A program made the translations under genes and the position numbers. A DNA stretch of 64,000 nt from Octopus vulgaris (Eukaryota), in the NCBI GenBank assembly GCA_951406725.2, contig OX597825.1, forward strand, positions 37,634,001-37,698,000, read 5' to 3'. This document shows positions 14,700 to 45,259 of this stretch, in pieces. The notes beneath the pieces are model-generated. The model was not told the origin of the DNA. It did not search any database and saw nothing but the letters and a program-made list of their open reading frames with translations. Each line of letters starts with the position of its first letter. Position 1 is the stretch's first letter.

Positions 14700-15710
14700 G
14701 TAATGTTCAAAAAGTTTAATTAGCACCTTCCTACGTTCGTAGTAACCTTCAAATTGTATTGATTGACAGTTGCGTTGAGTGCTGCAGATCTGTAGTAAAA
14801 TGACTGACTTCTTCCTTTTTATACCTTTTAGAAGGCTCCGACAATCTGAATTTTCCGAATATGATTTTCACCAATCAGCATGCAGCTTAAAATACACGTT
14901 TTACTGATACACGTTTTACTGATATCACTGGAATAGATCCGGCTCTCATTGTAACCAATTACTTGCGGTTTACATGTAATGGTTTTATGAATAAGCAAAC
15001 TTAGTTGGTTTCGGTTGTTGTTATTTGAATCAGCGGGAGTCTTTTGTAATTTGTTTATATTCATATGTTAAAGATATATTTTTCATCCACATCATTACCT
15101 GCTTGTTATATTATTGTTGTTATTTCCGCTCAGAACAGGTTTGGACATTTTAATGAAGCGTTTTTCTTTTATCTTGCTTTTAACATCACTTGTGTCATGT
15201 AGTTTTTGGAAAGGAAAATTAGAAACCATTTCCGACCACATGTTCCTCTACGTTCGCTCAATGCAATTTGGTAAACATTTGTGTTCCAGTTTTGTTGTCT
15301 GTGGACTCAAGAGCATTCCTATAATGTATCCCCTGTCTCGCCAATGTATAGATCTTCGCAATTAAGTCATATAATGCAGTAGGTCAAATTTCTGCTTTTA
15401 CAATTCATATTTGCAATTGTGAAAATCTGTTCATTCTTTGTTCTAATGTATCTACCAGTTTGTATGTATTGACACGTTCCATATCTGTTATTATTACATT
15501 TGGATACAGCGAAAGTTTTATGCTGTTTGTTCTTGTGGATATTTGCTTTTAATAGTTTCGAAGACTCCAGCTTGTCGGAGCCTTCTAAAAGGTATAAAAA
15601 GGAAGAAGTAAGTCATTTTACCACAGTTGTAAACCACCCAACTCAACTGTCAGTCAACACATTTTAAAAGTTGATGATTACTCCGAACTTATGAAAGCGG
15701 TGATAGAAAC

Positions 15711-31045: not shown

Positions 31046-31267
31046 CATCATCATCATCATCATCATCGTCATTATTCAAGTCACTGCCTGAAATAGTACA
31101 CGGAATCTAGGGGTTAGTAGCAGATCTAGTGCAAATATGGTTAGCATATCGGAACCGGTATTAAGGAAGGGTAGGAAAATATTAGATTTGTAAGCCCTAA
31201 AATTCACTCCATAATTACCCACAGGCATATGGCGATATAGTTAAGAGCGCGGGCTATAATAATAATG

Positions 31268-31320
<53 letters not shown>

Positions 31321-31321
<1 letters not shown>

Positions 31322-32959
31322 TCACCTCTATCTGATATGCTAAATAGAACTGGATGCGGATATAAATGTTACGGCAAAACGATCAGCCACCTTTTATATA
31401 TGGATGACCTAAAACTATACGCTGGAAATGACAAACAGCTGGAAACACTATTAAAGACAGTTCATGGATTTACCAAAGAAATAGATATGAAATTTGGATT
31501 AGAAAAATGCGCCAAAGTAACCATGAAAAAAGGAAAACTAGTTAAGAGTAACAACATCACACTAGATAAAACCAATGAAATAAAAGAATTAGACCAAAGC
31601 CAAACTTACAAATACTTAGGAATCCATGAACTAGATAAGACACAACACACACAAATGAAAGAGAAAATAAAAAAAGAATATTATAGACGAGTTAGATCAA
31701 TACTAAAAACAGAGCTCAATGCTAAAAACAAGATAATAGGTATCAACACTTTAGCTGTCCCAGTTATAAGTTACAGCTACAATATCCTTAACTGGACACG
31801 AAATGAACTGTCCAATATAGATAGGAAAACAAGAAAAATACTGACAGGATCTAGGATGCATCACCCAAAATCTGACATAGAAAGACTATATATACAACGT
31901 ATAGAAGGTGGTAGAGGCCTTATACAGCTGGAAAACTACTATAAAATAACCACCATAGGACTGCAAAAATACCTACTTCAGAAGGAAGGAAAACTGATCC
32001 AGATAGCAGCAAAACACGAGCAAAACAAAAAACTGTTCTCAGTATTTAAGGAAGCTGAAAAATACAAACAAGAAATCATACCACCTAATAAACACAAAGA
32101 AGAAGAAGAAGATGATGAAGAAACAACAAAAGCTATAAAACAAATGAAATCCAAACTAAAAATAGAACAGCAACGAGCCATGATAAAACGATGGCAAGAA
32201 AAGCCCCTTCATGGTAAATACTGCACTAAACTAAACGCAAAAGAAATAGACAAAGAAAAATCCCAGCAATGGTTGAGAAGCTCAGGACTCAAAGCAGAAA
32301 CAGAGGGATTTTTAATTGCAGCACAAGACCAAAGCCTCCCCACCAGAAATTACCAAAAACATGTAATGAAAAGAAATATTACAAGTAACTGCAGAACATG
32401 TGGAGATGGACAAGAAACAATAAATCATATTATCTCTAGCTGCCCAGTCCTGGCTAAGAAGGAATATATTCACAGACATGACAGAGTTGGAACCTACATA
32501 CATTGGAAGCTATGCCAACATTATGGAATAGCAACAGAAAAAAGATGGTATAGGCACACACCAGAAAAGGTCACAGAAAACGAGAAAGCAACCATACTCT
32601 GGGATATGCCGATACACACAGATAGAGAAATTAAGGCCAACAGACCAGATATAGTTGTCAGAGATCATGAAGAAAAAAAATGCTTTCTAATTGATGTATC
32701 AATACCGGCAGATGACAACGTTTCTCTAAAAGAAATGGAGAAACTCTCAAAATACAAAGACCTGGAAATAGAGATAACTAGAATGTGGAACCTGAAAACA
32801 GAAACAATTCCTATCATAGTAGGTGCATTAGGCATGATAAAAAAATATTCAGACAAATACATAACAAAAACACCAGGACTTACAAACACATATAACATAC
32901 AGAAAATTGCACTACTAGGCACTGCACACATCCTACGCAGAACACTTTCCATACAATAA
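31321..32959 (+). CDS. C-terminal part of R4/Dong ORF: RT (motif 5 onward), CCHC zinc knuckle, PD-(D/E)xK restriction-like endonuclease (5'-partial; the track's poly-Ile start is microsatellite)
   Basis: SHLLYMDDLKLY, YKYLGI, GGRGLIQL, HGKY, AAQDQ, CRTC-x8-H-x4-C, RHD, RPDIVV...LIDVSIP, EKLSKY and IALLGTAHILR all lie in one open frame of ~545 codons. Confidence 0.93.
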
Positions 32960-43769: not shown

Positions 43770-43803
<34 letters not shown>

Positions 43804-43968
43804 CGTAAAGTATACTAGCCATATCAATATGGCTAACCACTGAGGGTGGGTGTTACTGTAGCTTTTAGCCCCAGGAGATCATCGACTCCAGCTGGCTTTA
43901 GGCACACTTTCTGTGCTCTTATGATATTTGCAAAGGGAGGTCATCCCCTGTCGTGAACCTAAGTGATA

Positions 43969-44014
43969 CGCACGGACTGCAGTTTCGACGTAATTTACCT
44001 CTTGTCAACGTACG
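43969..44014 (-). ncRNA. Minimal type-I hammerhead ribozyme, U3-A8 core variant (family 2)
   Basis: CGTACG-TTGACAA-GAGGTAAATTACGTC-GAAAC-TGCA-GTC-CGTGCG: 6-bp stem I, stem II hairpin, palindromic helix III ACTGCAGT, GUC cleavage triplet. Confidence 0.78.
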
Positions 44015-44381
44015 GTAATCACCGGTTTGCGACGAACGGAAGACCTGTTTGCAAATACTTATAGGTTTTTCTAGTGACTTCCGTCACTGATTTCGAAAAA
44101 CCGTCTGCAAGCAATAATAAATCTCTGAACGAGTTTTTCGAAATCAGTGATGGAAGTCACTAGAAAAAACTATAAGTATTTGAAACAGGTCTTCCTTTCG
44201 TCGTAAACCGATGATTACCGTACATTGACAAGAGGTAAATTAAAAATTAAAAGCTACAGTAACACCCATCCTTAGTGGTTAGCCATATTGATATGGCTAG
44301 TATATTTTACGTTGTCGAGCGGTTACTGTTTACATCTCGTTCAGAGATTTATTATTCCTTTCGTCGTAAACCGGTGATTAC

Positions 44382-44427
44382 CCTACGTTGACAAGAGGCA
44401 AATTACCTCGAAACTGCAGTCCGTGCG
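44382..44427 (+). ncRNA. Minimal type-I hammerhead ribozyme, U3-A8 core variant (family 2)
   Basis: CCTACG-TTGACAA-GAGGCAAATTACCTC-GAAAC-TGCA-GTC-CGTGCG. Confidence 0.78.
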
Positions 44428-44638
44428 CATCACTTAGGTTTACAAGAGGGGATGACCTCCCTTTGCAAATATCATAAGGGCACAGAAATTGTGCCTAAAG
44501 CCAGCTGGAGACGATGATCTCCTGGGGCTAAAAGCTACAATAACAGCCACCCTTAGTGGTTAGCCATATTGATATGGCTAGTATACTTTACGTTGTCGAG
44601 CGGTTACTGTTTACATCTTGCTCAGAGATTTATTATTG

Positions 44639-44718
<80 letters not shown>

Positions 44719-44844
44719 ATATATAAAATAGAAAAGAGTGAAGAAAAAACTACAGAAGGCTTGTTTTATAAGATTAAAGAATATATTTAAGTCGTTATGT
44801 TAGAAGAATGTTATAAAATTTTGCATATAGTAACATAGTTTTTG

Positions 44845-44883
44845 GAGAAATTACCGGTTTCCTGTTAACTTTTCAAATTTCTC
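44845..44883 (-). ncRNA. Minimal type-I hammerhead ribozyme, U3-A8 core variant (family 3)
   Basis: GAGAAAT-TTGAAAA-GTTAACAG-GAAAC-CG-GTA-ATTTCTC: perfect 7-bp stem I, palindromic ACCGGT helix III, GUA triplet; stem II closing pair mutated. Confidence 0.68.
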
Positions 44884-45022
44884 AAATGTCTTTATATACA
44901 TCTTTATATACAAGCGATTATCTCCCTTATACCGGAAGAAATCACCTATTACCTCCCCCTGCCTGGAACACTCTCTTTGCACTGCATAACGAAGACATGA
45001 CACGATGTATATAAAGACATTT

Positions 45023-45061
45023 GAGATATTTGAAAAGTTAATACGAAACCGGTATTTTCTC
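45023..45061 (+). ncRNA. Minimal type-I hammerhead ribozyme, U3-A8 core variant (family 3)
   Basis: GAGATAT-TTGAAAA-GT TAAT AC-GAAAC-CG-GTA-TTTTCTC: 2-bp stem II with G10.1-C11.1. Confidence 0.65.
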
Positions 45062-45259
45062 CAAAATCTATGTTATTATATGCAAAATTTTATAACATTC
45101 TTCTAACATAACGACTCAAATATATTCTTTAACCTCATAAAACAAGCCTTCTGTAGTTTTTTCACTCTTTTCTATTTTCTATATATCCAACCACGTGCTT
45201 TCACACACCAACTTTCTCACCTATATATATATATATATATATATGATTGTAGACATATA

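Follow-up and report, generated by a model that had tools for sequence, protein, structure and literature searches.

The insertion at 43802-44640

The window analysed here is a 64,000-nucleotide stretch of Octopus vulgaris DNA. Positions 43802-44640 hold a single insertion between two (TA)n tracts, in which one repeat is arranged both inverted and in partial tandem when mapped on a natural array copy. Its parts are as follows.

43775..43801, no strand: left (TA)n tract (approximate bounds)
43802..44133, minus strand: copy A, a 5'-truncated inverted monomer that spans roughly -147 to +185, numbered from GAAAC
43969..44014, minus strand: hammerhead of copy A, with its U3-U4-G5-A6-C7-A8-A9 core at 44008-44002
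44132..44242, plus strand: 5' part of copy B, -116 to -5, head-to-head with copy A
44248..44360, plus strand: 3' part of copy B, +120 to +232, on the far side of an internal deletion of ~124 nt
44355..44640, plus strand: copy C, -55 to +231, linked to copy B across a ~68-nt deletion
44363..44376, plus strand: unoccupied 14-bp site; in other copies its counterpart is duplicated around an inserted LINE
44382..44427, plus strand: hammerhead of copy C (core 44388-44394; helix II 44395-44409; GAAAC from 44410)
44595..44640, plus strand: optional 'tail' of ~46 nt between the preferred 3' ends E1 and E2
44641..44726, no strand: right (TA)n tract (approximate bounds)

Copy A, which matches the natural array copy at 93.6%, ends at the first preferred 3' end (E1), where it adjoins a (TA)n tract; this left tract is the likely target of the insertion. 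Copy C runs as far as E2, the second of the preferred 3' ends, and the other tract follows. The inverted arms (43802-44041 and 44355-44594) are 240 nt long and 94% complementary. Between them lies copy B, in which the core (44225-44231) is still present. Of its helices I and II just the 5' halves survive, because the ~124-nt deletion has removed GAAAC, helix III, the cleavage site and the rest of helix II. All three motifs that an earlier note on this DNA had placed here were recovered at the same positions.

The locus is probably inert, since the ribozyme of copy C, the only complete one on the plus strand, has no intact partner on the same strand, the stems carry private mismatches (G.G in helix II of copy A and C.C in helix I of copy C, neither present in array copies), and the 240-bp fold-back would hide the ribozyme in read-through RNA. 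No match to a Penelope protein was found within the element, nor any RT plus GIY-YIG ORF between the repeats. Judged by such an ORF, the element itself does not appear to be an autonomous Penelope-like element. The window also contains a Penelope GIY-YIG fragment on the minus strand (15128-15555; 56% to the family at locus L154), a 572-codon retrotransposon-like frame on the plus strand (31241-32959) and, directly after the right (TA)n tract, a separate MITE-like fold-back (44743-45163) with 160-nt arms that are 94% complementary.

The hammerhead and its 3-8 pair

In copy A the 5' strand of helix I (44014-44009) is followed by the core TTGACAA, and cleavage is predicted after C17 at 43975; in copy C, where helix III is palindromic, it is predicted after C17 at 44421. 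Both copies agree at every position with the type I core (N3-U4-G5-A6-N7-N8-A9, G12-A13-A14, A15.1-U16.1, H17 and 3-8 pairing), with U3-A8 as the 3-8 pair. The ribozyme consists of a 6-bp helix I with a distal extension, a 4-bp helix II with a 6-nt loop, and a 2-bp helix III with a palindromic loop, and helices of this shape are described as the canonical metazoan type I form (PMC4209133). The same source gives the minimal hammerhead a helix II of 7-8 bp, a short helix I, an extra nucleotide between A9 and 10.1, and a helix III that is absent or tiny. The ribozyme of the window family has no extra nucleotide at that position, and the earlier description of it as a minimal Penelope-type hammerhead does not fit.

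It had also been suggested that standard searches would overlook this ribozyme because of its U3-A8 core. An Rfam scan of the window region did return no hammerhead, only sub-threshold matches of miRNA type, and among 11 loci of the family one, L211, gave a hit, below the gathering score (35.2 bits, against 52 for HH9). Rfam missed all five C3-G8 loci tested, while it matched one of six U3-A8 or U3-G8 loci, and the miss is therefore not specific to U3-A8.

Pattern searches of the genome gave 257 matches for C3-G8 sister copies, 106 for a pattern with the window's helix II fixed and positions 3 and 8 free, and 919 for a wider family pattern. The reversed control of each pattern gave none, which argues against a chance motif. 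In the first 100 of the 919, counted by hand, the helix III loop is a strict palindrome in 83 (in seven different sequences) and can pair with itself in 97 if G.U pairs are allowed. Several of these loops are only 2 nt long and would be unable to close a hairpin within one monomer, which points to a dimer instead. For an 8-bp helix III the dimer duplex is predicted at -11.1 kcal/mol. In an isolated monomer, a non-hammerhead structure (-17.6) is favoured over the hammerhead fold (-14.0) by 3.6 kcal/mol. The loop palindromes, the folds and the covariation results agree with the earlier proposal of a dimer-type helix III.

Covariation was examined in an alignment of 46 copies, made up of 45 of the 49 rows that passed a flank filter (four chimeric rows were dropped) and copy A of the window. 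Two-sided changes occur at 14 of 52 pairs, and none of 500 shuffles reaches the observed covariation score, although kinship among the copies may inflate it. In the stems for which this check had been proposed, helix II shows two-sided changes at three of its four pairs; helix I is 92.8% paired with one-sided changes only, and helix III is invariant. Taken with the self-complementary helix III loops (97/100), the covariation of helix II makes it likely, at the level of sequence, that selection has acted on a dimer-type ribozyme. The predicted fold of the circular monomer (z = -4.8) pairs 61% of the nucleotides and is a rod with the ribozyme at one tip; for the antisense strand the value is nearly as low (z = -4.2).

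With the window's helix II fixed and positions 3 and 8 free, U3-A8 is present in 97 of the 100 matches listed (106 in total; hand count), the remaining three being U3-U8, U3-G8 and G3-A8, one each. A script count of the first 100 of 919 matches to the wider family pattern gives 57 C3-G8, 37 U3-A8, 5 U3-G8 and 1 C3-A8, which makes 94 Watson-Crick and 5 U.G pairs. U3-A8 is thus the consensus of the window's sub-lineage and not of the family. The earlier reading of U3-A8 as a family consensus rather than decay stands in so far as the pair is inherited, but fails for the family as a whole. Another tolerated core change is found at position 4, which is C in 19 of the same first 100 copies, mostly in C3-G8 sub-families.

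Within the 37 U3-A8 copies the most frequent forms of helix II are GAGG/CCTC (17), GAGA/TCTC (8) and GGGA/TCCC (7). Pair 10.1-11.1 is a C.A mismatch in 54 of the 57 C3-G8 copies and G-C in 33 of the 37 U3-A8 copies, an association that may reflect hitchhiking, since perhaps only one switch took place. A Fisher test of it (p 9e-21) counts related copies as independent and was not used as evidence. Sequence 3' of the ribozyme was used to build an unrooted tree of 95 copies (5 of the 100 rows had too little of it and were dropped), which is ladder-like, with one C3-G8 arm and one U3-A8 arm. The tree requires seven changes at 3-8, of which the starred branches force only one, and a single clade is not rejected by the AU test (p = 0.13). 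Repeated independent switches are therefore not established. The covariation at 3-8 may represent a single event, and U3-A8 probably arose by one switch. The longest end branches occur in a C3-G8 group (0.059); among the larger groups, a U3-A8 one has the shortest (0.018). Distant relatives lying beside LINEs are C3-G8. These two observations suggest that U3-A8 is likely to be the derived state, in a tree that has no root. A U3.G8 sub-family of three copies on a starred branch could be the intermediate of the switch.

The U3-A8 pair is not new in nature. Natural cores of this kind are reported in PMC3088659, and the minimal hammerhead of the Cercyon Penelope of Schistosoma mansoni carries one, with ~1,300 hits (PMC4209133). 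The core is accordingly a known, rarer variant of the hammerhead (reports of 2011 and 2014). The compensated 3-8 pair is the same in the octopus repeat and in these cases, Cercyon providing a Penelope context. However, the cases described in these sources are minimal ribozymes of coding elements, while here the ribozyme is of canonical type and belongs to a non-coding repeat, and C3-G8 and U3.G8 sister sub-families occur in the same genome.

The repeat family, its ends and its LINEs

A DNA search of the 2.8-Gb genome returned 1752 candidates, of which 40 were scored; among these is a head-to-tail array of 10 units with a period of 355-357 bp and a ribozyme in every unit (G000:C4:13620873-13624198). 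The earlier description of an ORF-less, retrozyme-like element is well supported by this tandem monomer and by the longest stop-free frame of the window element, which has 54 codons. Most copies are dispersed 0.6-1.3-mers, and dimers also exist. The ribozyme region is also present in contigs under four other organism labels, where the listing gives no alternative letter for 44388 and 44393; C3-G8 sisters appear at loose ends. Contigs from four runs guessed to be RNA span the monomer, some of them across the cleavage position; being assembled, they carry no information on ends, strand, level or circles. More distant repeat families with hammerheads were also seen (L099, L114, the upstream part of L046, L143:1-230 and L263), the one at L143 having U3-A8. 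No literature on this repeat family was found in a search with most subscription journals and Repbase reports outside its scope, and the words 'ribozyme' and 'hammerhead' are absent from the main text of an Octopus repeat annotation (PMC13282606).

The ends of the copies show a consistent pattern. Ten array copies were excluded and 6 of a further 173 had no anchored alignment, which leaves 167. Their 3' ends fall at E1 in 88 copies, at E2, ~47 nt away, in 58 and elsewhere in 21, so that 146 of 167 end at one of the two preferred sites; none ends at the ribozyme cleavage site. The 5' ends are scattered, an inverted copy lies adjacent to the 5' end in 66, and the flanks are 81-86% AT. In the account of Penelope-like elements in PMC8557442, 5' truncation, inversion, a tail and AT-rich targets are listed as their features, and PMC11167929 places the tail between two internal RT start sites. 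The tandem-plus-inverted layout of the window locus had been read as the design of a replicon; given how often the inversion recurs, the fold-back is better regarded as a by-product of Penelope-type insertion.

The repeat shares with the Penelope groups Neptune and Nematis (PMC8557442, PMC11167929) 5' truncation, partial tandems and an adjacent inverted copy, as well as an optional tail between two 3' ends, (TA)n targets and a hammerhead upstream of the 3' end. Unlike the elements described there, it has no ORF, its tail is ~46 nt rather than 30-40, and it shows no sequence match to the Penelope termini examined. The genome contains many RT-GIY-YIG elements with intact 781-codon frames and (TA)n ends. 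These have a ~35-nt tail at 4 of 16 visible ends and a minimal U3-A8 hammerhead of their own, with 1,335 pattern matches. In 36 loci no terminus common to monomer and Penelope was found (two hits are neighbouring retrozyme copies; 150 of 6136 GIY-YIG candidates were scored), and alignment of the 3' ends of monomer and Penelope does not exceed shuffled controls (326/1000).

Some Penelope elements of this genome deserve separate mention. A young two-frame element (L145-L153, L132-L139, L143) encodes the 781-codon RT-GIY-YIG protein with a CX4CxxC linker of Neptune/Nematis type; it has a minimal U3-A8 hammerhead near its 3' end and repeated short 3' motifs resembling promoter boxes. The 3' end of another Penelope family (L199:8919-8960) has a minimal U3-A8 hammerhead whose palindromic helix III is not the one seen elsewhere; U3-A8 has therefore turned up more than once among unrelated elements of the genome. 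A Penelope fragment behind a U3-A8 copy at L199 is set off by a TA tract and was read as a separate insertion.

Three C3-G8 copies have a common upstream flank, which is a 5.3-kb LINE of the L1 group with two ORFs. Its Pfam domains are zf-CCHC, Exo_endo_phos, RVT_1 and zf-RVT, and its best solved relative is L1 ORF2p (E 9e-53, versus 2e-23 for R2). A search with LINE sequence only gave 212 candidates, of which 40 were scored and 30 fetched. A second LINE family, with a protein 58-63% identical, occupies the same site in tandem with the first. The loci are as follows.

L091:3894-9213 and 29 further loci (L095-L124, L264-L272): LINE, at one site with a ~14-bp duplication
L121 (downstream of the match), L216 and G000:C1:102658026-102663753: second LINE family

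All 30 fetched 3' junctions lie at one site just upstream of helix I, 27 of them in the repeat family, 2 in a distant hammerhead family and 1 in the second LINE. In the long copies checked (14/14) the repeat is found at both junctions, with a duplication of ~14 bp that follows the local sub-family. Target copies include the C3-G8, U3.G8 and U3-A8 sub-families, and a LINE stands directly upstream of 7 of the first 100 of 919 ribozyme copies. At least one of the distant hammerhead-bearing families is likewise a target. The flanking repeats are much less alike (75%) than the LINE ends (98%), which indicates independent insertions, and the second family at the same site suggests an old target preference.

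The element is putatively of L1/Tx1 type, since it shows features of the Tx1 clade: a zinc knuckle in ORF1 and an APE-RT-zinc finger ORF2. The closest named relative of a LINE protein comes from Argonauta (57% identity), and no named Tx1 reference was among the homologues returned by the search. Target-specific Tx1 LINEs (PMC4494074) share with it two ORFs, the APE-RT-zinc finger arrangement and a fixed site in a multicopy repeat; their targets there are DNA transposons, snRNA genes, microsatellites and unnamed satellites. A hammerhead retrozyme is not named among the targets listed there, although the 'Sat' targets of its Fig. 3 may overlap. No literature on a Tx1 element targeting a retrozyme was found, most subscription journals, Repbase reports and the supplements of PMC4494074 being outside the scope of the search.

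A candidate non-LTR retrozyme

The explanation that seems fairly probable to us is that the insertion is a decayed, inverted and partly tandem form of a ~355-bp ORF-less repeat with a U3-A8 type I hammerhead, likely a non-LTR retrozyme whose RNA is predicted to cleave itself as a dimer and which a reverse transcriptase/endonuclease of Penelope-like type would probably copy into (TA)n DNA. It has an ORF-less tandem monomer within the range of 150-450 bp, one type I hammerhead in each unit and a circle that is predicted to be highly self-paired. By every feature tested except an Rfam match above threshold, the element is likely to belong to this class. The non-LTR retrozymes of mussel (350-390 bp) and axolotl (330/350 bp), for which circular RNAs were shown (PMC7229834), have in common with it an ORF-less monomer of 150-450 bp, tandem copies, low GC and coexisting Penelope elements, together with a canonical type I hammerhead, a short helix III with a palindromic loop and a highly self-paired predicted circle. 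In contrast to the retrozymes described there, the octopus family has U3-A8 in 37 of 100 copies, the C10.1.A11.1 mismatch in 54 of 57 C3-G8 copies and a LINE that targets it, and its copies are mostly dispersed 0.6-1.3-mers. The words 'octopus' and 'cephalopod' are absent from the main text of PMC7229834.

In the proposed cycle, tandem source copies would be transcribed as multimers, and two ribozymes, joined by way of the palindromic helix III, would cut 3' of GUC. The monomer, predicted to fold as a rod closed by helix I, could circularise. To judge from the ends of the copies, a Penelope-like protein would nick AT-rich DNA, and reverse transcription would start inside the RNA, ~170 or ~220 nt downstream of the cleavage site; such internal starts would yield the 5'-truncated, more-than-unit and inverted copies. 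In one lineage C3-G8, the form inferred to be ancestral, would have changed to U3-A8, perhaps via U3.G8, and the new pair is found throughout the later sub-families counted. The copy in the window would by now be inert.

The repeat could be a 5'-truncated pLTR of a still unfound autonomous Penelope and not an independent replicon, which we regard as unlikely. The Penelope-type ends, inversions and targets would fit such a source, the GIY-YIG candidates scored amount to 150 of 6136, and the retrozymes of Xenopus are said to resemble pLTRs in bioRxiv 2026.07.22.740005. However, the unit repeats head-to-tail with nothing between copies, both in the 10-mer and in dimers. When 235 loci were compared with three Penelope proteins, three distinct places were hit and no coding region ran into the repeat, and the Penelope ribozymes of this genome are of minimal type, with sequences unrelated to that of the repeat. 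It is quite unlikely, too, that the U3-A8 hammerhead is a non-cleaving relic kept within a structured RNA bound by RT, its U3-A8 pair having hitchhiked on a successful source copy. A single origin of U3-A8 is not rejected, no copy ends at the cleavage site, and cleavage is dispensable for insertion of an Anolis Penelope in vitro (PMC11167929), all of which speak for a relic. Against this, compensated changes in helix II and changes of the helix III palindrome took place after the switch, across several sub-families; G5, A6, A9, GAAAC and GUC are common to the copies, although the pattern fixed these letters and dead copies are unsampled; and U3-A8 cores are reported to be active in vitro (PMC3088659).

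That the repeat is instead a SINE-like passenger moved by the adjoining L1/Tx1-type LINE is very improbable, even though all 30 LINE 3' ends examined lie at this family's site. The LINE interrupts the monomer, and the 14-bp duplications, which match the local sub-family, contradict it as the mobiliser; the difference between LINE ends (98% alike) and flanking repeats (75%) marks the repeat as the target. The two also have no sequence in common, and copies of the repeat end at fixed internal sites rather than in the LINE tail. The 240-nt inverted arms and the (TA)n flanks might suggest a fold-back DNA transposon or a MITE in whose arms the motif lies by chance. This is exceedingly improbable: arm lengths and inversion points vary from copy to copy, 101 of the 167 copies have no inversion, and tandem arrays exist, which together rule against it. 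In bioRxiv 10.64898/2026.07.22.740005 vertebrate retrozymes are argued to be non-autonomous Penelope derivatives. Some points count against the retrozyme reading of the octopus repeat: in the Xenopus test of that preprint only one of nine retrozyme dimers cleaved, the 36 Penelope loci gave no terminus in common with the monomer, the 3-8 covariation may go back to one event, kinship can raise the covariation score, the antisense fold is nearly as stable, and the isolated monomer favours a non-hammerhead structure.

A bolder proposal, which we hold to be doubtful, is that the ribozyme has been kept deliberately weak in two ways (C3-G8 with a C.A mismatch that closes helix II, or U3-A8 with the canonical pair G10.1-C11.1) and that the transcribed, self-processing unit has long served as a dedicated target for two or more LINE families of L1/Tx1 type. 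Since an intact hammerhead remains directly downstream of the LINE after the 14-bp duplication, a read-through RNA of the LINE would receive its 3' end from the host ribozyme.

Because the U3-A8 core itself is known, the finding as first posed is modest. The presence of C3-G8, U3.G8 and U3-A8 on one nearly identical scaffold does make it possible to measure what the swap costs and how it is linked to 10.1-11.1. The end statistics provide genomic evidence for Penelope insertion of an invertebrate retrozyme from internal starts, and not from the end cut by the ribozyme, which is relevant to the unsettled mechanism of retrozyme mobility. The LINE that targets the retrozyme is a more novel lead than the U3-A8 core: the exact-site LINEs are a candidate for a new target class of Tx1-type elements and offer a test of a LINE that uses the ribozyme of its host. 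If the bolder proposal is true, the LINE would be a parasite of a retrozyme that is itself parasitic on Penelope.
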